IMG/VR virus record: IMGVR_UViG_2684623050_000001
Coordinates: 53,698-117,697 of that record
From: a virus
Lineage: Duplodnaviria > Caudoviricetes
Length of the DNA: 64,000 nucleotides
Reading direction: 5' to 3' (one strand)
Each line of letters opens with the position of its first letter. Position 1 is the stretch's first letter. Below the pieces are notes generated by a model, which saw only the letters and a list, made by a program, of their open reading frames with translations, searched no databases and was not told the origin of the DNA. The position numbers were made by a program, and so were the translations under genes. This document shows, one piece after another, positions 5,905 to 55,482 of this stretch.

Positions 5905-6614
5905 ATTTCCATGGGATCTCCGGCGACCCGAGGCGTTCCGTGGATCGTTCCAGGGCCCGCCCCTGGCCGTTCCTAAATTCCGGATCAGGAAGACAGACCG
6001 CTGCCGGTGCCCCTCAAGCGGTCCGGACGAGACCTCGGGGCACCGGTCAGCAGCGTCAGCAACAAGCAGGCACAGAGAGAGCCCAGAGGCAGCTGCGCGT
6101 CCGGCGCGCTGCGCTTGCAGTGATAGAGATACAGCAGCGATCGTGGCGAGGCTACCGGATGCGTGTGGGCGTCCAAGGTGTTCGGGGATCGGTGGACGTA
6201 GAGGGAAACGGGCGCCGCGCGGCCGTGTCTATCTGATCCCTCTCCCAGCTATTCCCCACTCCCCGGCTCTCTATGGGCTCACACACGCTGGCGTCTCTCT
6301 AGGGGCTGTCTCTCCCCTCCCCTACGCGCTCCCCACAGACGCTCTCTCGCTCGTGTCTCTCTGATGCTGATGCGCTCTATTCGTTGGATGCGTCGCTCGC
6401 TTCGCTCAGAGCATCACACAGCGCGTTTCGTTCGTTCTGTGTCTCTCTGACGCTCTCACATGCTTCCCGACGCTCTATGAGCTTCTCATGCGATTTGCCC
6501 CTAAGACGCTCTCGATCGGGTCCATGTCTCTCTAGAGCTGATTGATGGTTTTGGGCTGCGAAATCGGGCTGCTCGGGCTCATGTCCCCTGATGAGACATT
6601 TTCCGCAAAATCGC

Positions 6615-6762
6615 GTTCGCATTGGATTTTGATGGGACATCCATAGGACATCCAGGTGACATCCATGGGACATCGGTGAGACATTCGCGGCCCTCGCCCG
6701 ATAGTTCGCATTGAGGTTCGAGGGGACATGCAGGTGACGTCCATGGGACATCCATGAGACAG
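6615..6762. repeat. 11-bp-period tandem repeats (iteron/centromere-like)
   Basis: GACAT at 6636, 6647, 6658, 6669, 6680 and GACRT/GACAG at 6725, 6736, 6747, 6758; each block starts 21 bp after the start of a GTTCGCATTG. Confidence 0.85.
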
Positions 6763-6864
6763 GCCTGGCCTCTCCGGACCGTGGCCTGTGTGAGCCTGGA
6801 CCAGGCTTCCATGGACCGGGTGCTCTACGAAGAAGGGGCGCCCGTGGTGCGCCCCTGTGTGGTC

Positions 6865-7218
6865 CTAGTCCTCGCTCTCCTTCCGGAGCTGCTCACGGTC
6901 GTCGAGATCATCCACGATGTCCCAGACCTTCCCCTCCCAGTCGTCGTTGTCGTCGGGGAACTCGTTCTCGCCGAGCCTGCGGAACTCTTCGACATGCGCG
7001 TTCACGGGATAGTGGAGCTTCCGGAAGGCTCTCTTGAGCTCCAGCAGCTCCTCCTCGGTGGGTGGCGTGTCTCGATCGAAGTCGATGTCCCTGGTGTCGC
7101 CTCCCGAGCCCGAGCCGCCCCGTTCGTAGCCGAAGCGCGCCGCGATCTCCTCGATGTCGCCGTCGCTGCCCTCGCTGCGCTCGTAGGTGACTTCGAGGCT
7201 GTAGTTGATGCTGGTCAT
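6865..7218 (-). CDS. Acidic hypothetical protein
   Basis: ORF with upstream promoter motif and downstream hairpin at 6834-6856. Confidence 0.75.
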   Translation of the reverse strand: MTSINYSLEVTYERSEGSDGDIEEIAARFGYERGGSGSGGDTRDIDFDRDTPPTEEELLELKRAFRKLHYPVNAHVEEFRRLGENEFPDDNDDWEGKVWDIVDDLDDREQLRKESED

Positions 7219-7288
7219 GACGCTCTCGCTCTGTCGATAGATGCACTATGCGCGAGAGACGTCGGCATGTCGGTTGGGAGCTCGCGGC

Positions 7289-7711: not shown

Positions 7712-7744
7712 GCCTTCGCATGTAGCTCGCGATCGTAGGGCCTG

Positions 7745-8275: not shown

Positions 8276-8333
8276 GGCTGGTTCGCGGTATAGGGTCCGA
8301 ATCCCTACATCGCGAACCAGCGCGCAGGCGAAA

Positions 8334-9685: not shown

Positions 9686-9756
9686 GTCTCTGCTCGCTGT
9701 GTGCTCTGCGATGATTTGACTATCGCAGAGCAAATTCGGCATGTCGGCTGGAACGA

Positions 9757-10347: not shown

Positions 10348-10418
10348 CGCGTGCTCTCGCTAAGTCGTTGCTGACATTGCGTTTATAGCAATGTCAGCGC
10401 TGTCTGTGCGCGGGGTCT

Positions 10419-12569: not shown

Positions 12570-12629
12570 GTGTAAGTCACCTGTGACTGACTGTTGTTGA
12601 CAAGATTATATTGACGAAATCGCGTCGGC

Positions 12630-14961: not shown

Positions 14962-15995
14962 CAGGCCGCGAGCTGATCCGCGCGGCCGACCACACCGTTC
15001 TCGGACGGCGGGTTGATGCGCACGTCGTAGCGGACGCCGGCCTCGACCAGCGTGCCGGTCTCCGCAGGGGTCAGATCGAAGAACACGTTCTTCTCCACGA
15101 TCCGGGTGTGGAGCTTCACGAGCAGCGCATCGACCGCGGCCAGCCTGTCGGCGTAGCGATCGGCGTCGGCGCTGTCGTCGTTCGCGACGGTCTTGAGAGC
15201 GGCGAGCTCCTGCTCGACCATCGCCTTCTCCTCGCGCAGCTCGCCGATGACCTCGGCCTGCTGCTTGACCGTCTCGTCGAGCTCCTCGATCGTCGCCGTC
15301 TGGCTCTCGATCGCCAGGTTGCGGGACTGAAGCACGTCCATCAGGTGCCCGTGCTTCATCTGGCGATCTTCGATCTCGCCTTCGAGCAGAGCGGCGTGCT
15401 CCTGGAGCCCCTCGACTTCGCCGGTGAGCTTCTCGATCACGCGGGCGATGATGCCCTTCTCGTTCTCCTCGCCGCCGTAGGTGCCGACGAAGCCCGACGC
15501 GATGATCGCCTCGAAGATGGTCTCGATGACCTCGGCCGGGTCGTAGCCGTTCTCCGGCAGCTGCGGGTAGATCTTGCGGAGCGCGAGGTCGATCTCGGCG
15601 AAGGTCTCCTCGTCGAGCGCGAGCTCCGTGTTCTTCTCGCGGATCACCTGGCCGAGGTGGTTGATGGTCTCGGCCCCCTTGGCGAGCGTGCCGGCCGCGG
15701 CGTTCATGAGGAGCGCGCTGGTCTGCTCCTGCTCCAGCTTCTTCAGGAGCTCGTTGCGGTAGTGGTCGATGACGTCGTTCAGCTCGCGGATCGTGACGTC
15801 GCGGTCGGCGATCATCTGGAACTGGTCGGACTTGAGCAGGCTGCCCAGGTGCGAGGCGACGTTGACGGTGCGCTCGTTGGTCTCGGTCTCGGCAGCGCGG
15901 GCGCGACGGAAGGCGCGGATCGAGAAGCCACTCAGAAGGCCGGACAGGCCGAGCGAGGCAGCGGCGACGAGATTGGTGGTGCTGAGGATGTCCAT
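14961..15995 (-). CDS. Membrane-anchored coiled-coil protein
   Basis: Start MDILSTT; N-terminal hydrophobic helix, long heptad region. Confidence 0.75.
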   Translation of the reverse strand: MDILSTTNLVAAASLGLSGLLSGFSIRAFRRARAAETETNERTVNVASHLGSLLKSDQFQMIADRDVTIRELNDVIDHYRNELLKKLEQEQTSALLMNAAAGTLAKGAETINHLGQVIREKNTELALDEETFAEIDLALRKIYPQLPENGYDPAEVIETIFEAIIASGFVGTYGGEENEKGIIARVIEKLTGEVEGLQEHAALLEGEIEDRQMKHGHLMDVLQSRNLAIESQTATIEELDETVKQQAEVIGELREEKAMVEQELAALKTVANDDSADADRYADRLAAVDALLVKLHTRIVEKNVFFDLTPAETGTLVEAGVRYDVRINPPSENGVVGRADQLAA

Positions 15996-16059
15996 GTCGA
16001 TCTTTCTCTGTGTGCGCTCACTCAGCGCTGACTGACTATAGCGCTCGCGTGTCGGCGTT

Positions 16060-21209: not shown

Positions 21210-21813
21210 GTCGCCCTCTCGCTCGGTAGCGATTTCGCTACCCTCACAAAAGGACGGGCGCCCAAGCCGTTAAGCCTGGGCGCCCGCGAAAGGTATGAGA
21301 GACAGGTGGTGTCCCGATTTCGACTCAGCGCCCTCGGGACCACGGACGGAGCGTCTGGTGCTGCCCTTCCCTCCCCTTGACGTGGGCGATCTCCGGCTGG
21401 GTTAAGGTCGTCAGCATCGACCCGCTGTTCAGCGATTCTTGGCGCAATCTCTGCCGGCCCCTCACGGGGATTCACGTTGGCGATCGCGTTGCCTGGCCCT
21501 GTGCTCGGGCCCTGTGCCTCCGTTCGAGGCGGGCTGTCGATTTCGTGCGGCAGGCTCACCGAGGCTGCAATGTCCTCGTCTCTCGCCTTGTGGGGCCGCT
21601 ATCGTAACTGGGTGATGCCGTCAGGCGCTGGTCAGAACTTCATGACGATCTCCTTTGCGTCTCGTGTTGTCGCGCTACACGTCACTGCCGAAGCTCAGTG
21701 TGTCTCTTGCGCGCTCGCTGTCGCTGTTGACTTAGACAAGATGCACTGACGAACGAGGGTAAGCTACTCGCTCATCAATGGTATCTCGCGTTCGCTAAAC
21801 CGCCCTTCCGCTG

Positions 21814-22724: not shown

Positions 22725-22983
22725 GGCCTTCTCCTTGTTGCTCTCCAGTGCGCTCAGTAAGTCAGCGCTGACTGATTATAGCAGTGCGCGCTTGGCGTTT
22801 TCAAAGCGATCGACACAGACCGGACTCAGAGGCGGCGTGGAATGCGCGACGTTGCTCTGTGAGACGCGCGAACGCTTTCGAGCATCGCTGATGCGTCGCG
22901 AGCGAACCGACGCTGTGCGAGCTTCTGAGAGCGTCGCAGATCGCGTCCTAGCGAGAGAGCGAAGTCGCTGTTTCGCGAAACGC

Positions 22984-23008
22984 AAAAGCCCCGCACGAGG
23001 GCGGGGCT
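22984..23008 (-). terminator. Rho-independent terminator
   Basis: AGCCCCGC/GCGGGGCT stem followed by TTTT on the minus strand. Confidence 0.7.
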
Positions 23009-25901: not shown

Positions 25902-26043
25902 TGTATGTCTTCCCTCTGTGTGAGCGCTGTGTGCTGCGCTGTGCTGTTGACTATTACGTTATAGCTTCAGCAACTCGGCGTGTCGGCTGGAACACAATGG
26001 AAGACCAGCGGCTTTCGTGCTTCGCTAAACCGCTGGATCGCGA

Positions 26044-27721: not shown

Positions 27722-28077
27722 TGCGGTGCGTGCTCCTTCAGTTCCTGACGGGCGCGGTAGATGAGCTGGGCGATGTCCCAGTCCACGAGCCCGGACACGG
27801 TGTCGTAGATGCCGTCCACGATGCACCAGAGCTCCCGCCCGGTGATCTGGCCGTCCGAGAATCGCAGCTGGGCGTCGGCGAGTGTGCCTAAAGCCTTGCG
27901 CGTGATCTCGTCTTTCATTGTCGCCCATTCGCTTTTCAGCGGCTTCGCGGGTTCGCGCTTGGGCGATCTGAGTTTCGTGGCGAGCTCCCGGAGCAGCCCC
28001 GAGGCGGGGTTGTCGGGCCTCAGTCGGTCCAGGGCCTTCGCCCCGGCCTCACAAGCGATTGCGTGACGCTCGCTCAT
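27718..28077 (-). CDS. Hypothetical protein
   Basis: First gene after promoter 28117-28136. Confidence 0.65.
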   Translation of the reverse strand: MSERHAIACEAGAKALDRLRPDNPASGLLRELATKLRSPKREPAKPLKSEWATMKDEITRKALGTLADAQLRFSDGQITGRELWCIVDGIYDTVSGLVDWDIAQLIYRARQELKEHAPQ

Positions 28078-28162: not shown

Positions 28163-29686
28163 TTAGGCAGCCTTCAGGTGCTTCGAGAGGGCCTTGCGGC
28201 ACATCTTGAGCTCCTTCTCGATCTCCCGCAGCGACTTGCCGGCCTTGTGGAGCTCGGTCGCCTTGAGGAGCTTCTCGGCGTAGGTGAGCACCGTGCTGAC
28301 CTCGGCCGGGGCAGGGGCCTTCTGGGCGAACGCCGGCTTGGCGACCTTCTTCGGCTTCGACTTGCGCTTGGGCGCGTTGACGATCTCCTTCACCAGGCTG
28401 TTGGTGATGGCGAAGTCGCCGAACTTCTTGGTGCGCAGCACCAGGCGCCCGGTCTTGCCGTCGTCACGGGTGGCCGCGACCTCGTAGTCGCCGTCGTCCA
28501 GCTTCTTCGAGCCCCTGATCCGCACCCAGTTGCCGGGGATCGCACGATCCCAGGCCGTCTGCGCCTTGGGCTTCTCGGGCACCACCGGCGCCGGGGCAGG
28601 GGAGGGCGCAGCCTCGGTGCCCTTCAGCTCCTCGCCGAGCTTGGCCTTGACCGCCTTGGCGTCGATCTTGGGCCGCTCCTCGATCTTGCGAACCGGGTTG
28701 AGCGCGGCCGGCAGACCAGGAGCGGCGCCGGTCTGAGTGACGGTGAGCGCGGTCTCCTTGTCCTTCACGAAGGAGCCGCCCACGACGACCTCTTCGAGCA
28801 CACCGACGTGATTGCCGGCGACGACGTTGGCGACGATGCCCCGCGCCTCCTTGGCAGTCAGCGCTGACTTATACTCCGAGACAGCCTTGTGAGCGGAGCC
28901 GTCGAGCAGCGCGACCAGGTGGTAGGCCGAGCAGCGCATCTTGCCGCCGTTGTAGTTCTCCGGGATCGCGATGACGTCGGCGGGATCGACCTTCACCAAG
29001 AAGACGGAATCGCCATACTGGCCGTAGCTCGCCGAGCAGACGTGCAGGCCGGAGCCGCACTGCGCACGGTCGACGCGGATCTTGTCGAGCGGCATCGAGA
29101 CGCGCGAGCCGAGACGCTGCATAACCCGGCCGGTGTGATGGTCGGCGAAGGTGTCGGGGCCCTTCTTGTCGAGGAACTTGTAGAGGACGATGCAGCCGTC
29201 GTCGGCGATCGGCAGATCCATCTTCTTCACGAAGGCGAGGAGCTCGTCCGCGGTGTGCTTGTGGTCGAGACGAGCGAAGCGCTCCAGGAACCGGGTGAGG
29301 CTGGTGCCGCCGTTCATCGCGGTGTCCTCGATCGCCTTCTCCAGCGCCGAAGCGTCCTCGATCTTGACGCCGGCAGCGGTCGAGATCGCGAGCTTGGAGA
29401 CGCCGTTCTCGACCTTCTCCTCGACCGTGACCGCGCCGCCCGTGACCTCGGCGATGCGCTTGGCGAGGCTGAACTGGTCGAGGTCGATCTCGATGCAGGC
29501 GCTCAGATCACTGCCGGACGCAGCAGCTTCGGCCGTCGCCTTGGCGAGCGGCACGAGCACCGCGTCCAGAATCGCCGCAGTGCGCCAGCTCTCCTGGCCG
29601 AACACCTGGCTCTTGCCGTCGGACGTGAAGAGAGTCACGCCGTTCTTGGAGACGATCGCTCCGGAAACGCAGATCTTGTTGCTCAC
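28163..29686 (-). CDS. rIIB: rIIB-like protein
   Basis: PIADDGCIVLYK, DHHTG, CGSGLHVCS, VKVDPADVIAIP; follows rIIA. Confidence 0.8.
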   Translation of the reverse strand: MSNKICVSGAIVSKNGVTLFTSDGKSQVFGQESWRTAAILDAVLVPLAKATAEAAASGSDLSACIEIDLDQFSLAKRIAEVTGGAVTVEEKVENGVSKLAISTAAGVKIEDASALEKAIEDTAMNGGTSLTRFLERFARLDHKHTADELLAFVKKMDLPIADDGCIVLYKFLDKKGPDTFADHHTGRVMQRLGSRVSMPLDKIRVDRAQCGSGLHVCSASYGQYGDSVFLVKVDPADVIAIPENYNGGKMRCSAYHLVALLDGSAHKAVSEYKSALTAKEARGIVANVVAGNHVGVLEEVVVGGSFVKDKETALTVTQTGAAPGLPAALNPVRKIEERPKIDAKAVKAKLGEELKGTEAAPSPAPAPVVPEKPKAQTAWDRAIPGNWVRIRGSKKLDDGDYEVAATRDDGKTGRLVLRTKKFGDFAITNSLVKEIVNAPKRKSKPKKVAKPAFAQKAPAPAEVSTVLTYAEKLLKATELHKAGKSLREIEKELKMCRKALSKHLKAA

Positions 29687-32060
29687 TTGCTGTTCTCCTT
29701 GCGGGAAATGTAACGCTGACCCAACTGTTCAGCGAAATCGAGGAAGTCTTCGCGCTGCGTCTGGGTCATCATGAGGAACTTCGACTTGTCGAAGACTTCC
29801 AGCAATCCCAGGTGCTCGACGCGGGTCTGAAGAGGCTCCCGTCCTTGAAGCCGGTGGCCTCAAGCTCGCAGACGATGTTGCGGTATTCCTCAACGAGCTT
29901 GAGGATCTCGGTGGACTCGGACTTGTCGAGATGGTCCGAGGAAGCCCAGCGCTGATGCAGGACGGTCTTCGCCATCAGCCACCAGGTCCAGGCGTCGTCG
30001 CGATCCGCGTCGTCGGTGTAGGGCTCACGCACAGCGGCGTGAGCGAAGCGACGCGAATGGGCGATCATCATGCCGGCGAGCTCCGAACCCATCTTGCTCG
30101 GGTTCGAGGCGAGCAGCGCCAGCTTCACGTAGAGGGCCTCGTAGGGCTTGTTCAGCGCGAGCCGGGCGCGGAGCTTCTCCAGGACCAGCGTTTCCAGACG
30201 CGGGATGTTCTGGCCCTGCAAAAAGTCCATGTCGGACCGCTTCCAAATCATTGCTACCTCGCCGATGTGCTTCTTGATGAGATCCAATACCAAATGCGCG
30301 TTGGGCGGCTGTCGGGTCAGGTAAAACGCGGGCTTGTAGTCGACAGATGTTGCCTTCACGCCGAAGTAGGCGGCCGGCATGAAGATGCGGGGAGAGACGT
30401 GGCACTCGCGGGTCGCGTAGAGCGTGATATCGTCCTTCGAGTAGGTCTCGCGGTCGCGATACTGGTCCCACGAAAGCTTGATGAAGCGAGGCGGGCAGGG
30501 CGGTCCGAACTGCTCCTTCGGCTTCTCGGCCTCGGGAATCACCTTCACAGCCGGCTTGAGGTCGATGACCTCGATGCCGAGCTTCTTCCCCTGCTCCAGA
30601 ATGACCTTGCGCTGGCTCTCCTTGAGCTTGCCGATCAGGATGTAGCCGCGCTCGGCCTTCCTCGCCTCGATCTTGTTCTGGGCGAGGAAGATGCGGGGCT
30701 TCCGCCAGCGGCCGTGAAAGCTGTAGGTGCGGTCCCGGTCGGGCTTGTTGGCCGCAATGGGCTTCTCGCGCTGCGTCACCTTGATGTGCAGGAGCTTCAG
30801 CACGTCGGCCTTGGTCGCGAGCCGCGCCACCGAGCGCTTGGCGTATTCGGTGGCGTCCCGCTCGAACGAGAAGCCCCGGCCGTGCTTGTGGCTCGCGATC
30901 TGCCGCAGGCCCCTCCGGCGATGCTTCATCGTGCCGAGGAAGATCTTCGCCTGCTCGCGCTCGGAGAAGCCGCGATTCGACATCACGTAGAGGGCGTAGC
31001 CGCGCGCGATCGCCTCGATGCCGGTGAGGAGCTTCTCGTTCTCGTTCTGCGCCTCGATATAGACCTTCTCGGCCGGCAGCTTGTTGCGCTTGGCGTCCTT
31101 GTAGGCCTCCTTCAGGAAGCCCTTCAGGTAGTGGTTCACCCGACCCTGGCAGCGGCCGACGACGCCTGCCAGCACCTTCTTGAGCGTGCCGACCGTCTGA
31201 TCGTTGTAGGACAACGCCTCGCGCGAGGGTGTGACCGAGATCGAGGACGGCGGGGCGTAGATGATGAAGGAGCGGTTGTTGAAGGTCATATCGCGCAGCC
31301 GCGAGATGTAGGCTTGAAGCTCCTCGTGCGTGTCCAGCGGGTAGAGAACGTTGGCGTAGAGGACCTGGACCTTCGCGATGTTGCGGCGCGACAGGTAGCC
31401 GAGGCCGAAGCCGTTGCGCTTGAGCTCCGTGTAGTCGGGCGCGCTGAGACGCTCGCCGTTGAGGTCGACGACCATGCCGCCTTCCTGAACGACCTGCTTG
31501 AGCGCGCTCTCGATCTTGTCGCGCATGCCGACGGCCAGCGGCACCGAGACCGTCAGGCCGGTCCCATCGGTGCGCGACTTCATCATGACCTTGGCGCCGG
31601 GCGTGCCGTTCGTGGTCGGGTCGCCGACGTGCATCGCGTAGAGGGTCGAGATGCCCTGGTGACGCGAGATCACGGTGAAGTGGTCGGAGATCGCGAACGG
31701 GGCCTTGGAGCCGAGGCCGAAGCCGCCCGTCTGGTTGTCCTGGCCCTCCTTCGTCGAGGCGAAGAGGGTGCAGTAGATGTCGGCGATGCGGTCGTCGGCG
31801 ATGCCGGGGCCCTGGTCCTCGACGATCAGCTCGTCGTCCGAGAGCGTCACCTTGACCGGCTCGCTCTCCTTGCCGACCATCGCGTGCGCGTCGATGGCGT
31901 TGCAGACGATCTCTCGGACCGCGGCACGCTCCTTGTCGCGGTAGAGGCTGTCGGACATGATCTTGAAGGCCGCAGCAGACGCCTTCACCTGGAAGGCGTG
32001 CGTCTTGCCGCCTCCGATGATGACGTGGCTGTCCGGCTCAGTGACGTGGGTCACTTGCAT
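29683..32060 (-). CDS. rIIA: rIIA-like protein (GHKL ATPase N-terminus) with apparent frameshift near 29840
   Basis: SLYRDKERAAVREIVCNAIDAH, DQGPGI, GGFGLGSKAPF; in-frame stop at 29769, alternative frame ends at 29683 overlapping the rIIB start. Confidence 0.8.
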
Positions 32061-32098
32061 GGGCGCGTCTCTCGCTCTCTGTGTGTGCGCTGCGCGTC

Positions 32099-32162
32099 TC
32101 AGTCAGCGCTGACTGACTTGTTATAGCGACAAAATCGCGGCGTTTCAGTCAGCGCTGAGTGA
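32099..32162 (-). promoter_or_regulatory. Type example: GCCG-N10-GCTATA promoter bracketed by two TCAGTCA-N4-TGACTGA operators
   Basis: Operators at 32099 and 32145; TATAGC at 32122, CGGC at 32138; family of 29 operators and ~16 promoters listed under findings. Confidence 0.85.
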
Positions 32163-35851: not shown

Positions 35852-36023
35852 GTTGATGTCCTCTATGTGCGGGAAGGGGAGGAGCGTTGGGCCGAGGGCG
35901 CACCTGCAAACCCTCGCTCCTCCCCGGTGCCTGTTCCCAGGCAGCGCTGCGTGTCTCAGTCAGCGCTGACTGATTTGTTATAGCGAGCGAGACGCGGCGT
36001 TTCGCTCGAAAAAGTGCGGAAGC

Positions 36024-40631: not shown

Positions 40632-40670
40632 CTCCGTTCCTCAGTCAGTGCTGACTTACTAGATATAGCG

Positions 40671-40874
40671 TCAATGAAGCGGCTTTTCACATCGCTTCAG
40701 TTGGGCTTTCACGTTGGCGAGGTTCCGGTGATCGGAAGGGGTCGCCGACGTGATGATGAAGCAGCCCGTCAGGACGTAGGTCCAGCGCAGGTGGTTCTTC
40801 TTCGTCTTCTCGATGGTCCAGCCCTCGCGCTTCTTCTGGCGCGCGAGAGCGTTCATGTCGCCCTTGAGGCTCAT
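40671..40874 (-). CDS. HicA-like small protein
   Basis: GWTIEKTKKNHLRW...SATPSDHR. Confidence 0.6.
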   Translation of the reverse strand: MSLKGDMNALARQKKREGWTIEKTKKNHLRWTYVLTGCFIITSATPSDHRNLANVKAQLKRCEKPLH

Positions 40875-41176: not shown

Positions 41177-41460
41177 GCGGCGTCCTCGATCTCGACGCCC
41201 ATCTCCGCGAGCTCGTGCTCCGTGCGGTCAATGACCAGCTCGAAGTGACGCTCCATCGTGCGCAGCAACGCGAAGCCAAGGTCGGTGTTGAAGCGAGCCT
41301 CCTCGACGAACGCCTTGCGAGCCGCCGGCGAGAAGATCACCTTGGCATGAGCAAACTCTTTGGTCTGACCGCGCAGCTCTGCGGGGAGCCGTTCCTTGGC
41401 GTGCTTACGCTCGCTCGTTTTAACAGCGATCTTCTGGATCTGGTCAGTGGTGAGCTTCAC
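41173..41460 (-). CDS. Hypothetical protein
   Basis: GTGA coupling to sbcC. Confidence 0.6.
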   Translation of the reverse strand: MKLTTDQIQKIAVKTSERKHAKERLPAELRGQTKEFAHAKVIFSPAARKAFVEEARFNTDLGFALLRTMERHFELVIDRTEHELAEMGVEIEDAA

Positions 41461-43397
41461 GCTGCGATCTCCTCGATAACGCTGTCGCCGCGTGCCTTCT
41501 TGCGGACGACGATGGTGTTGCGGACCCAATCCTTGAGATCGGAGTGGCTGATGATGAAGACGGTCCCGCGCTCGCGAGCCTTCTCCTCCAGGATCATCGT
41601 CAGACGCTCGATGCCGGCCGGACACAGGGCGTTGTCGATCTCGTCGCCGATGAAGAGGTCGATCGGCTTCGTGGCGCGCGAGGCGACGAGATCCTGAAGG
41701 GCCATCGCCGCAGCGATTCGGACCTTGCGCTTCTCGCCGCCCGAGATGGCCGCGAACTCGTCGCCGCCCTGGTCGTGGGTGACGTCGATGGCGAACCGCT
41801 CCTTCAGGTTGCCCTTGGCGTCCTTGGTCAGGGTCGACCAGGTGGCGTGGCAGTTGCCGTCGGAGAGGGCGCCGAGATACTTGGCCGTCTGCGAGTTCAG
41901 GAACGGCGTGATCTCGTCCAGGAGCTCGGCGCGGGCGCCGGCCGGGGCGAACACCTTGGCAACCGCCTCGGCGACTTCGAGCGCCACGGTCGCCTTGCCG
42001 ACGTGCTCGATCGCGTCCTTGACCTCCTGCTCCAGCTGCAAGACCTTGGCCTCGGAGCGCTCCTTGGCCGCGAGATGCGGATTGACCTCGGCCTTGAGCC
42101 GGTCGATTCCCTCCTTGATCGTGCGCGCCTCGTGCGACTTGGCCCGGATGTCCGCCTGGAGCCGGTCGTCGTCGCGCAGGGATGCTCTCAGAGCGTCGCA
42201 CAGCGCGTTGGTCGCGCTGACGTCAGTCATTGATGCGCGATACGCTTCCAAGCGCTCAGTGACGCTCTGATGCGATTTCAGCGCTGTTTCATGCGCTGCT
42301 TTCGCGTCGCGCAGAGCGCGCAGCGCGTCGTTCAGAAGCCCCTGCTGCTTGGTCTGGGCCGGGGCGATGTCCTCGGCCGAGAACGGGCGGTCGCACGAGC
42401 GGCACGGGCAGCCGACCTGATGCGCCAGGCTGTCGAGGATCTCCTTCTCGCGCTTGGCGTCGCGGGCGAGCTGCCGGGCGTTGGTGTCGGTGCGGGCAGC
42501 CGCGATCGACGCCGCCTGCTCCTCCTCGATCAGCTCCCGCTCGCGCTTGCGCTCGATCTCGACCGCGGCGATCTGGGCCTCGGCCTCGTGGAGCTGCTTC
42601 TCGACGGCCGGACGGTCGATGGTCGCGCGTCCCTTGAGCGCCTTGACCTCGCCCACGAGGACACGGACCCGCGCGGTCTGGCCCTCGATGTGGTCCTTGC
42701 GCTTCTGCTCCCAGCGCTCGATGTCCGAGGTCAGGTCGAAGGCGATCCGGTCCTTCTCGTTCTCCAGGGCCTGCTGACGCAGCGCGAGCGTGTGTCCGGC
42801 CGCGGCGAGGTCCGCCTTGGCCTTCTGCACGTCGCCGAGCGCGATCCGGTAGCCCTTCTCCAGCACCGTCGCGCCGGCCGCTTCCTCGACCACGACCTTG
42901 AGATTCTTGTCGGTCATGCCCGGCAGGTCGGGCATCTGGTCCTGGCCGGCGTAGATCGCGCCGACGAAGACCTCCCAGGTGCAGCCGAGAATCTGGTTCA
43001 CGATCTCCTGGGTGAGCTTGTCGGTGCCCTTGGTCAGATCCGTGACCGTGCCGGCCTTGTCCGTGTGGACGACGGTGACGCGGTTCTTGCCGGCCTTGTG
43101 CTTGCGATGCCGGGCGATCAGGTAGCTGTCATCGCCATCGAGCACGGTCGCGGCGACGCGGCACTGCTTGCCGACCTGGTTGTTGATGACGGCATCGCCT
43201 TCGACGCCCCGCGCCGTGGTGCCGTAGAAGCACCAAGCGAGCGCATCCGGCAGGGTCGACTTGCCCGAGCCGTTGGAATCGGCGGACGTGTCGACCTCGT
43301 TGACGCCTTGGATCAGCACGAGGCCGCGGTCGGCGAGCGCGAGGCTCGCCTTCCGGATCGTGCCGAAGTTCTCGATCTCGATCTTGGGAAACTTCAC
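41457..43397 (-). CDS. sbcC: SbcC/Rad50/gp46-like ABC ATPase
   Basis: NGSGKST, CRSC zinc hook, SGGEK signature, IGDEI, IISH. Confidence 0.92.
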   Translation of the reverse strand: MKFPKIEIENFGTIRKASLALADRGLVLIQGVNEVDTSADSNGSGKSTLPDALAWCFYGTTARGVEGDAVINNQVGKQCRVAATVLDGDDSYLIARHRKHKAGKNRVTVVHTDKAGTVTDLTKGTDKLTQEIVNQILGCTWEVFVGAIYAGQDQMPDLPGMTDKNLKVVVEEAAGATVLEKGYRIALGDVQKAKADLAAAGHTLALRQQALENEKDRIAFDLTSDIERWEQKRKDHIEGQTARVRVLVGEVKALKGRATIDRPAVEKQLHEAEAQIAAVEIERKRERELIEEEQAASIAAARTDTNARQLARDAKREKEILDSLAHQVGCPCRSCDRPFSAEDIAPAQTKQQGLLNDALRALRDAKAAHETALKSHQSVTERLEAYRASMTDVSATNALCDALRASLRDDDRLQADIRAKSHEARTIKEGIDRLKAEVNPHLAAKERSEAKVLQLEQEVKDAIEHVGKATVALEVAEAVAKVFAPAGARAELLDEITPFLNSQTAKYLGALSDGNCHATWSTLTKDAKGNLKERFAIDVTHDQGGDEFAAISGGEKRKVRIAAAMALQDLVASRATKPIDLFIGDEIDNALCPAGIERLTMILEEKARERGTVFIISHSDLKDWVRNTIVVRKKARGDSVIEEIAA

Positions 43398-46249: not shown

Positions 46250-46323
46250 TCTCGTCGTGCTCCGTGTGCTCAGTCATCGCTGACTGACTCGTTATAGCAG
46301 CGCACGATCGGCGTTTCAGTCGG

Positions 46324-47237: not shown

Positions 47238-48350
47238 CTACGCAGCGTCCGAAAGAAGCAGGGCGTTGTCGGCCTCGGTCTCGCCGGTCAGCTCGGCCGC
47301 GTCGACTTCCTCGGGCTCGTAGTTCTTCGGCAGCAGGTCGTGGAGCTTGGACAGCTCGCCGGCCTTCTCGATGTGCCGAGCCAGCTGCTCCTTGTGCCAG
47401 CTCTTGCCCTCGAACTCGACGTAGCCCGGCCGAGCCGTCTTGAGGAGCTTCTCGCCTTCGAGGAACTCGATCAGGCTCCGCTCGATGTCGAACTTGCCGG
47501 TGCCGTCGGGCTGGAACATGAAGCGCCAGGACGCCTTCTGGAACGGCCGGACGACCTTGTTCTTGGCCGTGGTCGCCGAGATCTCCATGCCGAGGATCTC
47601 GGCGTTCTCGCCCTTGCCCTTCGTGATCTTGGCCGCGGCGCCGAGCATCAGCTTCACGGTGTCGTAGTAGAGCGGCGCCTCGCCACCCGGCGTCTTGCGC
47701 GGGTCGCCGTAGACCACGCCGATCTTCATGCGGATCTGGTTCAGGAAGATGCCGCAGACGCCGAGCTCCTCCAGGTAGAGCGCGAAGGCCGGGAAGTGGG
47801 CCGAGGTCGCGCGGGCGAGCGCGGTGTTGTCGTTCATGTTGCGGTCGCCCATCGCCTTGTCCTTGCCCGTCTTCATGTCGAGCAGCGCGGACTGGGGCAC
47901 CATCGAGGCGAGCGAATCGAACACCCAGCAGATCGGGGCCGACGGCGAGATCAGCTTCTTGTCGCGGATCAGCGTCGCGGTCTCGACGCAGGCGGTCAGG
48001 CTGTCCTCGAAGGTGCGCGGCTTCTTGTAGACGAAGGTGCCGGGCTTGGTGGACAGGCCGATCCGCTCGCCCAGCGGCATCGAGTAGGCGCGCTCGTGGT
48101 CGGACAGGCCGGCGAACCCGCCCGCCTTCTGGGCGGCGATCATCGCGCGCGTGGCGATGGCCGTCTTGCCGGCAGCCGACGGGCCGGCGATCTCGACCAT
48201 GCGGGCGACGGGGAAGCCGCCGTCCCAGCGGCCGGACAGGGCGTAGTTGAGCGGCGCGTAGCCGGTGTCGAGGAAGCCGGTGACGGTGGATTCGGGGTCG
48301 CTCTGACCGAGCGCGCCGAGAGCCTTCGCGATTTCAGCAGCAGATGCCAT
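47238..48350 (-). CDS. recA: RecA/UvsX recombinase
   Basis: EIAGPSAAGKT, VFDSLASM, NQIRMKIGVVYGDP, TPGG. Confidence 0.93.
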   Translation of the reverse strand: MASAAEIAKALGALGQSDPESTVTGFLDTGYAPLNYALSGRWDGGFPVARMVEIAGPSAAGKTAIATRAMIAAQKAGGFAGLSDHERAYSMPLGERIGLSTKPGTFVYKKPRTFEDSLTACVETATLIRDKKLISPSAPICWVFDSLASMVPQSALLDMKTGKDKAMGDRNMNDNTALARATSAHFPAFALYLEELGVCGIFLNQIRMKIGVVYGDPRKTPGGEAPLYYDTVKLMLGAAAKITKGKGENAEILGMEISATTAKNKVVRPFQKASWRFMFQPDGTGKFDIERSLIEFLEGEKLLKTARPGYVEFEGKSWHKEQLARHIEKAGELSKLHDLLPKNYEPEEVDAAELTGETEADNALLLSDAA

Positions 48351-48362
48351 GTGTCTTGATCC

Positions 48363-48878
48363 TTATTCGTCAACAAAACCGACGCCATCGTCCAGATCAG
48401 CCGAAGCTGCGGGCGAGACGTCATCGTCCTCGTCGTCGATGAAATCGACGCCGTTGATGGTGGGAGCGGGCGCAGGACTGCTCTGCTGCCGCTCGAATTC
48501 GTCGCGCGCGTCCTTGCACATGCGCCCGCCGATCTCCGCGACGGTCAGACCGGAGCGGGTGGGCGCGCGGGAGCCGGGCTGCGGCACCTGGGTGAAGGCC
48601 GTGGCGCGGGCGCCGGCCGGGTAGGTCGGCACGCGATCGGGCAGGGGCGCCGGCGTGAGCAGGCCGGTGGGCAGCTCCATGTCGAGCTTGAAGCCCGTGG
48701 CCGGCGCCTGGGCGGCCGCGACGGCGTTCAGCCGGGCCGCCTGCAAGCGCAGGGCGACGTAGGTGAAGGCCTTCTCGACCTGCTCAACGCTCGCGCCGGC
48801 CTTGGTGAGCGACTTGTTGAGGGTGTCGCCCACCTTCGCCGCGCGGGTCACAGCACCTTCGATCGTCTCGGTGCTCAT
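48363..48878 (-). CDS. Hypothetical protein
   Basis: Coupled ORF with acidic tail. Confidence 0.65.
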   Translation of the reverse strand: MSTETIEGAVTRAAKVGDTLNKSLTKAGASVEQVEKAFTYVALRLQAARLNAVAAAQAPATGFKLDMELPTGLLTPAPLPDRVPTYPAGARATAFTQVPQPGSRAPTRSGLTVAEIGGRMCKDARDEFERQQSSPAPAPTINGVDFIDDEDDDVSPAASADLDDGVGFVDE

Positions 48879-49906
48879 GCTGCCTCCTTGTTGCAGTCAG
48901 TGCTGACTGACGTTTCGGGGTAAAAGGGCTCGACCCAGCGGTCGATGTCCTTCGTGATGGAGTTGAAGACCCGCTCCTTGCAGAACTCCTCGAAGGCTTC
49001 GAGATCGAACTGCCCCTTGTTGAGGCGCGGGCGCTCGGGCTGGGGAATGTCCGGATGGTTGAGGTCCATCAGACGCAGGTTGCGGTAGAACCGATCCCGC
49101 TTCTCCGGCTCCGAGCAGAAGTCGGCGAGCTTCTTGGGGACCTTGACCTTCTGGATCTCGACCGCCTCGAAGAAGCCCTTCACGTCGCCGAACTGGATGA
49201 CCAGCTCGATCGCGCCCTTCTCGCCGACGCCGCCGACGCCGGGGATGTTGTCGCCGGCATCACCCTGGAGCGCCTTGCATTCGAGGAAGGCGCGCGGGGA
49301 GGGGACGCCTCGCCACTCGACGTCCTCGATCAGGTCCGGCAGGCCGGCGCCCTGCTTGACCTTCTGGGTCTTCATGTAGCCGATCTTCTCGGAGAAGGTC
49401 GCCGACGTGATGCGCTTGTCCTGGATCGGGTCCCACCAGTTCACGCCCGGCTGGACGAGCTGGAGCCAGTCCTTGTCGCCGGAGCAGAGCACGACGCGCT
49501 GGCCCAGGGCCCGATAGCGACGCACCAGGATGCCGGCCCAGTCGTCGGCTTCGAGGTTGGCCGCGGTGAGCTGGGGCACGCCGAGCAGCGAGAGCGCCTT
49601 GCCGAGCACGGGCTTCTGCTTGCGCCAGCTCTCGCGCACAGCCATCTGCGCGATCTCGTAGGGCTTGACCGAACCGGACTTGTCCCGGTTCTCCTTGTAT
49701 TCCTCGAAGGCGTCCTTGCGCCACGTCGCACCGTCCCACAGGACGATGGGCTTGAGCATGGGGTAGCGTGCCAGCGCCACGCGGATCATCCGCAGGCCAC
49801 CGAACACGCCCTGAACCTCGACGTCGCCCACGGTGAGCTTCGTGGTCGAGGTCGCCGCGAACCCGATGTTGTTCGCGTCGATGAGCAGATAGCCGATCTT
49901 TTCCAT
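48875..49906 (-). CDS. 5'-3' exonuclease/flap endonuclease (T4 RNase H-like)
   Basis: LLIDAN, YKENR, EADD, SGDKD, GDAGDNIPGVGGVGEK. Confidence 0.9.
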   Translation of the reverse strand: MEKIGYLLIDANNIGFAATSTTKLTVGDVEVQGVFGGLRMIRVALARYPMLKPIVLWDGATWRKDAFEEYKENRDKSGSVKPYEIAQMAVRESWRKQKPVLGKALSLLGVPQLTAANLEADDWAGILVRRYRALGQRVVLCSGDKDWLQLVQPGVNWWDPIQDKRITSATFSEKIGYMKTQKVKQGAGLPDLIEDVEWRGVPSPRAFLECKALQGDAGDNIPGVGGVGEKGAIELVIQFGDVKGFFEAVEIQKVKVPKKLADFCSEPEKRDRFYRNLRLMDLNHPDIPQPERPRLNKGQFDLEAFEEFCKERVFNSITKDIDRWVEPFYPETSVSTDCNKEAA

Positions 49907-50944: not shown

Positions 50945-51198
50945 ACTTTCTGCTTGCTAGGTGGGCCGAAGCCCTTGGTGCTGCTTGGATTGCTTGCTTT
51001 CGCTAAGTCGCTGTTTAGCGTTCGCTCTTGCTATATAGCGACTTCGCGTCGGCGTTTTCGTGTCTTGCGACAGGAAACATCAGCGCTTGCTGATCCGGTG
51101 ATACCCGCGCCATCCGCCGAAGCGGGGACGGTTGCGGGTGAGGTAGCCCCAGGTGCCGAACCAGCAGCACCCGAGGATGAGAGCGATGACGTCGGAGC

Positions 51199-52013: not shown

Positions 52014-52077
52014 GTCTGCCTGTGCTCCTACTCAGTCAGTGCTGACTGATTTGTTATAGCGAAAAGAGAGCGGCGCT

Positions 52078-55000
52078 TCACTCGGTAAGCGACGCGGCGA
52101 CAGCGAAGACCTCATCGAGCTTGGCCTGCTTGGCGGGCTCGAAGAAGATCTCACCCGGAGCGAACCCGATCACGAGGTTGGCGTCGAGAGCCTTGGAATA
52201 GACGACCTCACCCGCGAACTCGGACGCCTTGCCCTTGAAGTCGGGGATGAAGTGCCGGACGGTCGAGGAGCCGAGCAGCACGATGCAGGGCGGCTTCAGG
52301 ATCTCGATCTCCTTCATCAGGTAGGGCGAGTAGGCGGTGATCTCCTTCGGGGAGACCTGCTTGCCCTCCTTGGGCCGCTTGATGAGGGCGGTCCAATAGG
52401 CGTCCTGCCGCTGAAGATCGGCTGCATCGAGCGCGGCCTTGATCCACTCGTTCATCGTGCCGCCCGTCTTCGAGCCGAGGAACGACATGAAGCCGCTCTC
52501 GTCCTCGCCCTTGGCCGGGCAGTCGGTGATGACCATGAACCGGGCCTTGCGGCCGATCGTGGGCTTAACGGGCATGCCGTCGTCATGGTGCCCGTCGCAG
52601 TAATCCGCGACCAGCGTGATGATCTTAGCCTTCTCGAAGGAGCCGATGTCCATCTCGCGCGCGATCGGGACGTGCGCCGTGATGAGGCCGGGGAGCAGCT
52701 CGCGCTGATCCTTGACCCGGCTGTCGTGCTTGGCCGGCAGCTGACCAGGCTCGATGCGCGCGAAGGCGCCCACCTTGTTCAGCGTCTCGACGTGCCGGAC
52801 GTTGCAGCGACGCCGCTCCACCCGGTCGGTCAGGTCCTGCATCGACTTGAACGGCCCGGCCGCGCGCGCCTTCAGAATCGCGTCCGTCGTGTTGGCCGAG
52901 ATCCCCTTGATCCGGTTGAAGGGCATGCAGAGCCGGGCATCGGTCACGATCTCGAACTGGCCCGTCGAGTGGTTGATGTCGGGCAGGTCGACCTCGATCC
53001 CCATCCGCTCGGCGTCCTTCATCAGGCCGGGCAGCTTGTCCTGACCCATCTGCGACAGCGCAGCCGCGAAGAACTCCACCGCGTAGTAGGTCTTCAGATA
53101 CATGGCCTGATAGGAGATCAGGGTGTATTCGACCGAGTGCGACTTGTTGAAGCCGTAGCCGGCGAAGCCCTCGATCTTGTCGAACAGCGCGCCCGCCCAG
53201 TTGGCATCCTGCTTGACCGTATCCACGCAGCCCTGGACGAACTTGCCGCGCTCCTTCGCCATCTCCTCGGGCAGCTTCTTGCCCATGATCTTGCGCAGCT
53301 TGTCGGCCTGGGGACCCGTGTAGCCGGCGATCACCTGGGAGATCTGCATGACCTGCTCCTGGTAGACCATCACGCCGAAGGTCGGCTTGAGGATCGGCTC
53401 CATGAGCGGGTGGTCGTATTCGACCTCCTCGATCCCCTGCTTGCGCTTCCAGTAGCTGTCCATCATGCCCGATTCCATCGGACCCGGACGGTAGAGCGCG
53501 GTCGCGGCCGTGATGTCGTCGAAGCAGATCGTGCCGTCCTTGCCGAGCTCCTTCAGCAGGCGCCGCATGCCGCCGCCCTCGAACTGGAAGATGCCTGTCG
53601 AGATCGCCTTGGCGAAATTCTCCAGCACCTTCGGATCGTCGAGCGGGATGCGCAGCAGGTCGACCGTCTTGCCGCGGCGCTTGCGGATGTAGTCGCGCGT
53701 GGCCTCGATCAGGTCGAGCGTGTTCAGGCCCAGGATGTCCATCTTGACCAGGCCCTGGTCCTCGACGATGCGCTTGTCCCAGCAGACGACCGGCAGCTCC
53801 GGAACCTCTTCCTCGCCCTCCTTGGGCTTGGCCGGGGCCTTGCGACGCTCGATCACCGCCCGCTCGACCAGATCGCAGCCGGCCACGACGACGCCGGCCG
53901 CGTGCTGACCCAGCGCCGACATGCAGCCTTCGAGCTCGCCGGCCGTCTTGGCGAGGAACGGGTTCTTGCTCGCCCAGTCGGCGATCTCCGGGACCTCCTT
54001 GATCGCCTCGACGAGCTTGACGGGCTGGCCGTGCTTCTTGGGCACGAACTTCGAGCAGCGGTAGTCGTCCTCGGGCAGGCGGAAGGACTTCGACACGCCG
54101 CGGATGGCCGACGAGGCGCCGAGCTTGAGGAAGTTCGACACGCCCGCGACGCGCTTGGCGCCATACTTGTTGATGAGGTAGGTGAAGACCTCGTGGCGCC
54201 GCGCCGACATGAAGTCGAGGTCGGCGTCGGGAAGGTCGAGACGCTCGGGGTTGATGAAGCGCTCGAACAGGAGACCGAAGCGGATCGGATCGCAGTCGGT
54301 GATCCCCATCAGGTAGGCGATCAGCGAGCCACCCACGGAGCCGCGGCCGGGCCCGACGGCGATGCCGGCGCCCTTGGCGAACTGCACCACGTCCTGCACG
54401 AGCAGGAAGTAGCCGCAGAACTTGAGGTTCTTGAGCACGGACAGCTCATACTTGAGCCGCGGCGTGTAGACCTCCTTGAGCTCGTCCAGGCTCGGCCGGT
54501 GCCCGAAGACCTGCGCGCCGAACCGCTTCGACCAGCCCTTCTTGCACTCGGTCACGACAGCCGCGAACTCGTCGGGCGCCATCACCGGCAGCGAGGGCGC
54601 GAACTTCTGCCACTCGTATGTGACCTTGGAGACCAGCGTCTCGGTGTTCTTGAGGCCCTGGAGGAAGGCCCCGCCCGCGCCCTTCACGCCGCGGAACTCC
54701 ACGAGCCGGCGCTGGCTCTCCTTGCAGAGCTCCACGAGACCCTTGAGCGAGCGCGGGTGCATGTCGCGCGCCGCGTTGATGTAGGCCCAGGGCTCGTCCA
54801 TCTTCACGTTGCGGCGGATTGCGTTCATGACGTCGGTCGCGTCGGCCCCGCCCTCGGGATAGAGGCTCGGGATCGTCGTGAGCAGCGGCAGGCCCAGCGT
54901 GTTCGCCAGCTCGATCGCGCGCGTGTTCACCGTGTCCCAGTAGGGCGTGTGAATGGGCGTGAGCGTGAGGAACACGTTCTCGCGCGTCACAGCGTCAGCG

Positions 55001-55482
55001 ATGCGCTGCAAGATGCTCTGCGCGTCAGCATGCGTTCCGACGCTGTATGCGTCGCTAGACGCGATTGCGACGTCATCCGCAGTGAGCGTGTCGAGCACTG
55101 AATAGAGATCAGCGAACGACAGCTTGGCGTTGTTGTAGAAATGGTCCTCGTCGTTGGCGAGCGACAGAAGCTTGTAGAGCCCCATCAGGCCCGCGCCCGA
55201 GAGCACGTAGTAGGTGACGAAGAACTCGGCCGGAGCCTTCTTGTCGTCCTTCGTCTTGCGCCAGGTGATGTCGTCGACCAGGCGCAGGCGGGCGCCGATG
55301 ATCGGCTTGATCCCGGCCGCCTTCGCCTTCGTCGTCAGCTCGGGCAAACCCGTGACGGACATGGTGTCGGTCAGCGCGATGGCCTTGGAGCCGAGCTCCG
55401 CGGCCTGCTTCACGAGCTTGCCGATGTCGTTGATGGATTCGCCGATCGAGAAGTTGGACCGGGCGGCCAGGATCGCGTGCAT
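52078..55482 (-). CDS. dnaE: DNA polymerase III alpha subunit fused to a C-terminal uracil-DNA-glycosylase-like domain
   Basis: PHP domain, GPGRGS, FERFINPER, PDADLDF, KMDILG, YGFNKSH; C-terminal KEIEILKPPCIVLLG. Confidence 0.93.
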   Translation of the reverse strand: MHAILAARSNFSIGESINDIGKLVKQAAELGSKAIALTDTMSVTGLPELTTKAKAAGIKPIIGARLRLVDDITWRKTKDDKKAPAEFFVTYYVLSGAGLMGLYKLLSLANDEDHFYNNAKLSFADLYSVLDTLTADDVAIASSDAYSVGTHADAQSILQRIADAVTRENVFLTLTPIHTPYWDTVNTRAIELANTLGLPLLTTIPSLYPEGGADATDVMNAIRRNVKMDEPWAYINAARDMHPRSLKGLVELCKESQRRLVEFRGVKGAGGAFLQGLKNTETLVSKVTYEWQKFAPSLPVMAPDEFAAVVTECKKGWSKRFGAQVFGHRPSLDELKEVYTPRLKYELSVLKNLKFCGYFLLVQDVVQFAKGAGIAVGPGRGSVGGSLIAYLMGITDCDPIRFGLLFERFINPERLDLPDADLDFMSARRHEVFTYLINKYGAKRVAGVSNFLKLGASSAIRGVSKSFRLPEDDYRCSKFVPKKHGQPVKLVEAIKEVPEIADWASKNPFLAKTAGELEGCMSALGQHAAGVVVAGCDLVERAVIERRKAPAKPKEGEEEVPELPVVCWDKRIVEDQGLVKMDILGLNTLDLIEATRDYIRKRRGKTVDLLRIPLDDPKVLENFAKAISTGIFQFEGGGMRRLLKELGKDGTICFDDITAATALYRPGPMESGMMDSYWKRKQGIEEVEYDHPLMEPILKPTFGVMVYQEQVMQISQVIAGYTGPQADKLRKIMGKKLPEEMAKERGKFVQGCVDTVKQDANWAGALFDKIEGFAGYGFNKSHSVEYTLISYQAMYLKTYYAVEFFAAALSQMGQDKLPGLMKDAERMGIEVDLPDINHSTGQFEIVTDARLCMPFNRIKGISANTTDAILKARAAGPFKSMQDLTDRVERRRCNVRHVETLNKVGAFARIEPGQLPAKHDSRVKDQRELLPGLITAHVPIAREMDIGSFEKAKIITLVADYCDGHHDDGMPVKPTIGRKARFMVITDCPAKGEDESGFMSFLGSKTGGTMNEWIKAALDAADLQRQDAYWTALIKRPKEGKQVSPKEITAYSPYLMKEIEILKPPCIVLLGSSTVRHFIPDFKGKASEFAGEVVYSKALDANLVIGFAPGEIFFEPAKQAKLDEVFAVAASLTE

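Follow-up and report, generated by a model that had tools for sequence, protein, structure and literature searches.

GG/CC-poor patches in the sbcC and dnaE genes of a phage-plasmid family

Why should the gene for a DNA polymerase and the gene for a Rad50-like ATPase each contain a stretch of about 150 base pairs in which the dinucleotide steps GG and CC are almost completely absent? This question is raised by the 64,000 nucleotides analysed here (the window), which form slightly more than half of C2, a circular contig of 117,697 bp within a 5.6-Mb bacterial assembly. Window position 1 corresponds to C2:54759, and the final 1061 window bases wrap round to the contig start. C2 is a phage-plasmid contig with terminase, capsid, tail and ParB-like genes, and it carries a replication and recombination module comprising dnaE, sbcCD, a recA-like and a gp32-like gene, and genes for a primase, a helicase and a ligase. 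From window position ~2000 to 62759, the minus strand carries almost all of the genes. An earlier reading made from the letters alone (the sequence-only reading) had pointed to four dispersed GG/CC-poor elements, two of them inside sbcC and dnaE, and had proposed that they are cis-acting sites superimposed on coding DNA. Its observation is confirmed and its interpretation is partly supported. The principal new result is comparative, in that orthologous sequences indicate conservation of the in-gene patches at the same codons in relatives.

There are 24.8 ± 6.1 (s.d.) GG/CC steps per 150 bp in the C2 background. With a cut-off of five or fewer steps per 150 bp, seven GG/CC-poor regions are found on C2, every one of them in the window half. 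The rule that holds for the four elements is shared by two patches that had been missed and by an island of 1.7 kb, whose three genes (3409-2795, 2692-2501 and 2440-2060) encode proteins without glycine, proline or tryptophan. Each of the four elements had been said to hold only two GG/CC sites, which is correct for the sbcC patch, the dnaE patch and the intergenic patch at 22841-22988, but the intergenic patch at 6336-6497 has three. The maximal-scoring segment of the latter spans 164 bp, and patches in high-GC genomes measure 148-223 bp, with a clustering at ~145-225 bp, a segment-length measure that is unreliable for low-GC genomes. The regular spacing of 13-19 kb that had been suggested disappears when the missed patches and the island are added, as the gaps then run from ~1 to 19 kb.

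The two in-gene patches lie far outside what their protein sequences predict. When the protein was kept and synonymous codons were redrawn from genome usage in 2000 simulated genes, the expectation was 22.3 ± 3.6 steps in the sbcC patch and 19.5 ± 2.9 in that of dnaE, as compared with the two that are observed in each (z -5.7 and -6.0, respectively). None of the 2000 simulated genes contained a window as poor as these patches, and the claim that the stretches lie outside random expectation given the amino acids is therefore upheld. The host chromosome also has 43 runs of windows with five or fewer GG/CC steps per 150 bp, but the 40 of these that were listed are AT-rich, with a GC content of 0.24-0.45, whereas that of the patches is 0.49-0.63. 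Thus, within this assembly, GG/CC deserts of normal GC content are a peculiarity of the phage-plasmid.

The abrupt switch in codon use inside the genes, also described previously, is real and is largely a matter of GG/CC avoidance. In the in-gene patches of the window genome and of the Methylobacterium oryzae plasmid, non-preferred codons are sited where the preferred codon would create a GG or CC step in 16 of 24, 21 of 33, 22 of 31 and 29 of 32 cases. Preferred codons that are harmless in this respect are used at about the background rate (24, 17, 16 and 13 cases), and the rare codons are not placed regardless of their neighbours as they would be in a rare-codon cluster or pause site. The missing steps have mostly given way to CG and GC (observed/expected 1.3-1.8) and not to TC, CT or TT. 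All sixteen NCCN contexts are depleted, and the surviving CC sites lean towards TCCN (12 of 33, versus 19% in the background). Because codon choice, replacement by CG and GC, and depletion of every NCCN context all agree, the ban targets the GG/CC step itself and not rare codons, low GC content or a longer word. Its cost is borne as rare codons and as glycine and proline residues in essential proteins.

Ortholog sets were gathered from IMG/VR by protein patterns located outside the patches, except for six contigs that were fished with a pattern at the edge of the sbcC patch. There are 76 coding sequences in the sbcC set (75 from IMG/VR plus the window), from which 69 representatives with less than 95% protein identity were retained; these span a GC content of 0.42-0.69 and show 36-56% SbcC identity to the window. 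The dnaE set comprises 65 sequences and 53 representatives. Codons were resampled 300 times for each sbcC ortholog and 200 times for each dnaE ortholog. The gene-wide GG/CC minimum of sbcC is located at window codons 335-395 in 53 of 69 orthologs (chance ~0.10), where, as with all of these counts, the relatives are phylogenetically linked and do not represent independent events. Depletion reaches P<=0.01 in 37 of the 69, and 35 of these have the patch at window codons 335-395 while two have it elsewhere (codons 175 and 159). For dnaE, the same level is reached in 15 of 53 orthologs, all 15 at window codons 100-130, and these 15 are the portion of the family nearest the window. Synonymous constraint at orthologous codons, which the sequence-only reading had named as a check on its proposal, is consequently present in both genes. 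The sbcC patch is kept across a GC content of 0.49 to 0.69. The six contigs obtained with the coding pattern at the upstream edge of the patch, which include a lineage with a GC content of 0.57, all exhibit the dip (3-4 steps versus 14-32 in the flanks). In whole-record maps of eight genomes, the sbcC patch is found in seven, the dnaE patch in four and an island in seven.

Among the nearest named relatives is the 116.8-kb M. oryzae plasmid, whose dnaE gene has 77.7% DNA identity with that of the window. It carries the sbcC and dnaE patches at the same codons, with a minimum of 2 steps per 150 bp, and inside the patches it matches the window at 61-63% of bases and at 24-26 of 50 residues. The patch sequences diverge to this extent and yet both genomes keep only two GG/CC steps: the patch sequence drifts freely, and solely the absence of GG/CC is retained. 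The closest relative with an island, a genome designated G401, has all four of the original elements at orthologous places. In this genome, the counterpart of 6336-6497 is situated at 100931-101095, beside the iteron-side gene, and that of 22841-22988 at 116167-116321, upstream of the transglycosylase gene. The M. oryzae plasmid also has a patch upstream of this gene (at 27880-28028), albeit a weaker one with 5 sites in 149 bp. In other lineages, patches occur at the end of the primase gene or within a structural gene. These locations, and the two sbcC patches at other codons, indicate that the requirement is for a patch and not for a particular protein segment. An insertion or a mobile element was also considered as the source of the in-gene patches and was ruled out, as the genes are collinear with their orthologs in Rhizobium phage B1VFA.

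The ban is likewise apparent at promoters. An early promoter family consists of TTGAAAACGCCG, ~11 bases, GCTATAAC and then the palindromic AGTCAGTCAGCGCTGACTGA. The strict pattern occurs at six distinct places (eight overlapping matches), versus 0.09 expected, and none of these is in an in-gene patch. In eight promoters that were picked regardless of their spacer, the non-transcribed spacers contain no GG/CC in 104 steps, where ~16 would be expected, and the stretches from promoter to ribosome site are GG/CC-free over 45-77 bp. Since non-transcribed spacers obey the ban as well, it acts on DNA, and the constraint is thus at the DNA level and not at that of protein or RNA. Codon-level avoidance, recurrence at orthologous codons and the ban in spacers together bear out the proposal that cis features are laid over coding DNA. 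The ban on GG/CC is thereby shown to be real, to operate on the DNA, to be a specific trait of the phage-plasmid and to recur at orthologous places. The coordinates of the patches and of associated features are collected in Table 1.

Table 1. Positions of the GG/CC-poor regions, the genes that house two of them, and the copies of a shared 20-mer (window coordinates)
Feature	Positions	Strand	Remarks
Patch, intergenic	6336-6497		3 GG/CC (GG at 6386, CCC at 6466-6467); beside iteron/CCATGG arrays
Patch, intergenic	22841-22988		2 GG/CC; between a terminator (~23010-22985, minus) and the lytic transglycosylase operon's promoter
Patch in sbcC	42182-42338	-	2 GG/CC; codons ~353-403, directly after the zinc-hook CPxC motif
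Patch in dnaE	54971-55125	-	2 GG/CC; codons ~119-170, PHP domain
Patch, intergenic, missed by the sequence-only reading	21625-21802		minimum 5 per 150 bp, GC 0.54
Patch, missed by the sequence-only reading	62745-62927	-	minimum 4 per 150 bp, GC 0.49; promoter and leader of the first leftward operon (148-aa gene 62313-62759)
Island	1974-3656	-	one GG/CC in 1681 bp; three minus-strand genes
sbcC, Rad50-like ATPase	41457-43397	-	Pfam AAA_23, SMC_N; houses one patch
dnaE, DNA polymerase III alpha	52078-55482	-	Pfam PHP, DNA_pol3_alpha, finger, HHH_6, UDG; houses one patch
20-mer AGAGCGTCGCACAGCGCGTT	2710-2729	+	exact copy at 42190-42209
20-mer AGAGCGTCGCACAGCGCGTT, near copies	6408-6427, 22928-22947	+	2 and 3 mismatches, respectively

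There are about 20 early promoters on the minus strand, including those at 22745-22805, 25913-25979, 32062-32141, 35940-35998, 40639-40683, 46262-46312, 50987-51053 and 52027-52074. In these, GCTATAAC is followed by the 18-bp perfect palindrome TCAGTCAGCGCTGACTGA, which is probably the operator of a dimeric repressor. The island genes and several genes that are first in their operons have no Shine-Dalgarno sequence GGAG (3411-3424, 2445-2460, 32070-32090 and 15995-16010, minus strand). In its place, a GG-free stretch rich in CA or GA (ACACAGAGAGAC) is located directly before the start codon.

What might require such patches? The best explanation available, which we advance tentatively, is that they are stretches kept clear of a GG/CC reader that is active throughout the family, perhaps a modification of virion DNA, so that a large complex can assemble there. 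Selection would continually remove the GG:CC step from stretches of ~150-220 bp, and the same rule would shape the island of earliest genes plus promoter, operator and leader regions. Something in the phage-plasmid family would then act on nearly every GG/CC step, and the patches would have to escape it. The reader could be a covalent mark on virion DNA, produced by the packaging-linked ParB-ParB-ABC ATPase operon, or it could be a protein that binds or cuts at GG/CC steps. A GG/CC-free stretch would offer bare DNA to a large protein-DNA complex, with the start of replication or recombination, a topoisomerase such as gyrase, segregation and packaging as candidate assemblies. We infer the existence and identity of the reader, as well as what assembles on the patches, from the pattern of avoidance. 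The sequence-only reading had mentioned unmodified landing pads among its possibilities, and this remains the most economical idea.

Two ParB-like and two ABC ATPase-like genes adjoin the terminase genes and are candidates for the source of a mark. ParB-like partners or activators of phage DNA-modifying enzymes are documented in one study (PMC13229309), where the hypermodification is post-replicative and sequence-selective, and nucleobase acylation by an ABC ATPase-GNAT system is predicted in another (PMC7824862). The window genome resembles those systems in that its ParB-like and ABC ATPase-like genes are a plausible source of a mark, but differs in that no dioxygenase or confident GNAT was found in this genome, and unmodified windows are not described for those systems in the text consulted. 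A more specific proposal, possible but doubtful, is that the phage-plasmid superfamily marks nearly all GG/CC steps of packaged DNA with a base modification not yet described, added at packaging by means of the ParB-ParB-ABC ATPase genes. The first genes, the promoters and the ~150-bp stretches within genes such as sbcC and dnaE would then stay unmarked because host or phage machinery has to engage the DNA there, and the ~150-bp stretches would be obligatory assembly sites, for instance for gyrase or for the start of replication or recombination. The same row of genes also includes one whose product has a Thoeris anti-defence 2 (Tad2-like) domain (C2:47921-48385; locus L014:9921-10385, minus strand).

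Several observations weigh against a reader of this kind. The GNAT match in the ParB-ABC operon is not significant (Pfam E = 0.16), and no modification, nuclease or bound protein is evident in this analysis. A reader that recognizes only two base pairs would be unusual. The early promoters retain GCC in ACGCCG, and therefore the ban is not absolute at protein-bound sites. In addition, the island and the in-gene patches do not always occur together. In the M. oryzae plasmid both in-gene patches are retained although the island is lost, and its ortholog of an island protein (60.6% identical) has an ordinary composition with glycine and proline. Conversely, B1VFA has retained the island, while its sbcC and dnaE genes show no more than shallow dips (minima of 12 and 8, versus gene means of 20.0 and 19.6). 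One reader would then have to weigh differently by region. Finally, an 8-base box described below is somewhat enriched, being found in 6 of 13 patch classes, which fits a sequence-specific binder.

It is this last possibility, that each patch is a set of sites bound by a sequence-specific protein and that the lack of GG/CC merely follows from the sites, that survives best among the alternatives, although we regard it as rather unlikely. Candidates for such a protein are the winged-helix-like protein of the island or its paralog on the iteron side. The shared words that had been reported are present. The 20-mer AGAGCGTCGCACAGCGCGTT, said to lie near 2711, 6410 and 42191, has exact copies at 2710 in the island and at 42190 in the sbcC patch, and near copies in both intergenic patches, with two mismatches at 6408 and three at 22928; all are on one strand. 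An inverted imperfect copy also lies within the sbcC patch. Similarly, CCGACGCT(C/G)T is present at 6467, 22907 and 55037, and GCGATTTCAGCGC is present at 2658 and 42272. The top 8-mer, GACGCTCT/AGAGCGTC, is found in the 6 of 13 non-orthologous patch classes noted above (null mean 0.51), and in three of the seven classes from other genomes. There are three copies of GACGCTCT in each of two patches, spaced 20-111 bp, an arrangement that may be set beside plasmid centromeres (parC/parS of small ribbon-helix-helix or ParR systems), in which tandem boxes of 7-11 bp are in helical phase; the patches as a whole show no periodicity. One of the patches with three boxes is that at 6336-6497, which also has the 20-mer copy with two mismatches. 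Most dnaE patches conserve the synonymous codons GCT and AGC in GAC GCT CTG AGC. The palindrome CGCTCNGAGCG is found in 7 of 15 dnaE patches and in none of 38 orthologs that lack a patch.

However, these words do not add up to a shared signature of the kind that had been proposed. The maximum over all 8-mers attains 6 of 13 classes in 8.8% of simulations (P = 0.088), and 7 of the 13 classes have no box. The patch sets of sbcC and dnaE have no 6-mer or 7-mer in common apart from what GG/CC-free composition would lead one to expect. The 20-mer is specific to this genome, and the patches and islands of relatives share nothing comparable. The palindrome is found neither in the window genome nor in the M. 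oryzae plasmid, and it is in only 2 of 37 sbcC patches. Moreover, a few boxes cannot account for GG/CC avoidance over all of 150-220 bases. A common motif as a general feature was consequently rejected, since k-mers, 8-mer boxes, palindrome and 20-mer are inconsistent between genomes. Some patches may contain a short box, while the conserved general property is the absence of GG/CC.

A constraint on RNA, whereby stretches of mRNA or embedded small RNAs avoid a ribonuclease or need to fold, is improbable. Early-operon leaders are indeed GG/CC-free as far as the ribosome-binding site, and island transcripts are so throughout. Furthermore, the sbcC patch folds better than its shuffled versions on both strands (z -2.95 and -2.36). 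However, folding of the dnaE patch and of the two intergenic patches does not surpass that of shuffled sequences (z -0.5 to -1.2), the in-gene patches and their surroundings contain nothing that resembles a promoter or a terminator, and no Rfam family is matched in the window. The removal of both GG and CC would require two separate rules at the RNA level, and the purged spacers of the promoters are not transcribed.

A mutational footprint is more doubtful still. Under this explanation, stretches that are often single-stranded, such as origins or R-loops, would be hit by a CC-specific deaminase or by damage. The island and most patches do have a reduced GC content (0.49-0.63 versus 0.65), and the effect is strand-symmetric. 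Yet the lost steps do not become TC, CT or TT but instead become mainly CG and GC, and the sbcC patch of the M. oryzae plasmid has a GC content of 0.68, which is above its genome mean. The sharp borders of the patches and the retention of function in essential genes point to selection instead.

Local avoidance of a host defence that depends on CC or GG is very improbable. Such a defence could be a type I-F CRISPR-Cas system with a CC protospacer adjacent motif (PAM), or restriction at targeting hot spots. In type I-F-targeted Pseudomonas phages there is a published depletion of CC PAMs centred on protospacers (PMC12174588), which is mild, genome-wide and statistical. The likeness lies in the same dinucleotide and a local emphasis, but here the purge is near-total and confined to sharp patches. 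Csy3, the marker of type I-F systems, was not found in any of the 61 genomes searched in the host genus, this host being one of them, and Cas1 was found in 12 of the 61 but not in this host. A desert of 150 bp amid site-rich flanks would give no protection, and the patch is conserved across hosts with a GC content of 0.49 to 0.69. Least credible of all is a by-product of protein composition or of a rare-codon cluster that slows translation: the sbcC patch does encode a coiled coil poor in glycine and proline in which rare A/T-ending codons cluster, and B1VFA has its shallow dips at the same places, but codon resampling and neighbour-dependent codon choice contradict it, given that the amino acids predict 19-22 steps and not 2, preferred codons are kept wherever no GG/CC arises, two of the four elements are non-coding, and some lineages have the patch elsewhere in the gene or in other genes.

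Returning to the proposal of stretches kept clear of a GG/CC reader, a number of known systems offer partial parallels. The strong gyrase site of phage Mu is a single-purpose element of ~130-150 bp that lies well inside the phage genome, with a length that fits protein-wrapped DNA. The sequence-only reading had made this comparison on the basis of length and of a recurrence of GCG/CGC about every 10 bp. The length stands, at ~150-220 bp, and patches of 148-223 bp cover a footprint of ~130-150 bp, although this is a weak criterion. The helical periodicity does not stand. In a spectral analysis of 35 sbcC and 15 dnaE patches against control coding windows, power at a period of 10.0 bp is just 1.45 times (sbcC) and 1.28 times (dnaE) that of the control, and there is no peak at 10.7 bp (0.95 and 0.63 times, respectively), whereas the 3-bp coding peak is weakened in the patches. 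The patches further differ from the Mu site in that there are several per genome, and to our knowledge GG/CC avoidance is not part of gyrase site signatures.

The first-step-transfer (pre-early) DNA of phages T5 and BF23 is without sites for a host restriction enzyme. The likeness is that a defined part of the genome is kept free of a short word that is common elsewhere, apparently because it works before or without protection. The present case differs in that a dinucleotide step is banned and in that, in addition to one gene island, the ban covers several ~150-bp patches, of which two fall within replication and repair genes in the middle of the genome. A set of earliest, self-contained genes is found in the island but not in the four patches, two of which are in sbcC and dnaE and two of which are non-coding.

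Origins embedded in genes are another precedent. The lambda ori lies inside gene O, and the oriV of repABC plasmids lies inside repC, spans ~150 bp and has a deviant composition. These origins consist of iterons, an AT-rich unwinding stretch or both, and are located in the initiator's own gene. As in these examples, the patches are cis elements of ~150 bp and deviant composition in otherwise normal genes of a high-GC replicon. They differ by lying in sbcC and dnaE and by having no conserved repeats, since no k-mer is shared and boxes are inconsistent between genomes. Also, there is no AT-rich stretch in the in-gene patches, whose GC content is 0.58-0.63 in the window genome, the corresponding values for the M. 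oryzae plasmid being 0.56-0.68. The literature searches returned no account of dinucleotide-free patches in these or other phages. The consulted text of a paper on phage 'nickie' makes no mention of nicks.

In a DNA polymerase and a Rad50-like protein, a ban on one dinucleotide step has thus taken precedence over codon preference and even over the choice of amino acids, and it is kept at the same codons in relatives with only 37-56% of SbcC residues in common. The patches may be the clean evolutionary footprint of a DNA reader not previously described. If this reader is a new DNA modification, the patches would mark where a modified genome must stay readable, with a bearing on transcription, replication, packaging and engineering of hypermodified phages. 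If it is a two-base-specific binding or cutting factor, this would be new in itself.

The other nearest named relatives are the Rhizobium phages B1VFA, V1VFA-S and RHEph10 (~70%), which are described as phage-plasmid-like siphophages, B1VFA having direct terminal repeats of 3.6 kb (PMC12509600). Closer relatives were found neither by a near search of the phage collection nor among 400 genomes of the host family, and single-protein queries of IMG/VR gave none except for one query that returned two. A scan of genome contigs gave only distant DnaE proteins, and a metagenome scan with patterns that were too conserved gave cellular DnaE of 31-45% identity. Four public sequencing runs do contain relatives, as contigs, at ~90-99% identity, and no RNA run with a relative was listed. 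The relative in run X1 was compared over 41836-42686, 47271-49066 and 54466-55481. In several stretches it is nearly the same as the window, with 0-3 differences per 300-550 bases, while 67 of 851 bases differ around the sbcC patch (41836-42686), which in sequence terms suggests mosaic exchange there. Among the contigs listed for this run, one boundary flanks the dnaE patch, with an end at 54951 and a restart at 55171.

Some other features of the window are of interest. Iterons of 11 bp (GGGACATCCAT) and CCATGG-rich arrays (6604-6772, 3658-4600 and 5700-6000) flank a 302-aa gene (4666-5574), whose product is a paralog, 30% identical, of the 204-aa island protein that is free of glycine, proline and tryptophan. 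On the minus strand, 21210-21800 comprises ~550 bp without a gene call, in which a good ribosome site is followed by a two-codon open reading frame (ATG AAG TTC TGA). This stretch ends with a strong hairpin resembling an intrinsic terminator near 21250-21290, has no Rfam match and may be a non-coding RNA or a leader. No tRNA genes were found in the window. The C-terminus of DnaE (residues 979-1081) forms a domain of the uracil-DNA-glycosylase superfamily (Pfam E 3.5e-9).

On the plus strand, a 194-aa gene (665-1249) is followed by a gene for a small ribbon-helix-helix protein (1246-1674) in a block that holds ParA in relatives, and the two may constitute a type Ib partition pair. A minus-strand gene pair (28163-29686 and 29769-32054) matches the PHROG families of RIIB and RIIA lysis inhibitors, and a GHKL ATPase domain is present in the second member. 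The gene at 60836-61840 (minus strand) encodes a CobT-like protein with a C-terminal sigma-70 region-4 domain and adjoins genes for a CobT-VWA protein and a MoxR/CbbQ-like ATPase, and a separate weak match to sigma-70 region 2 is located at 56817-57443.

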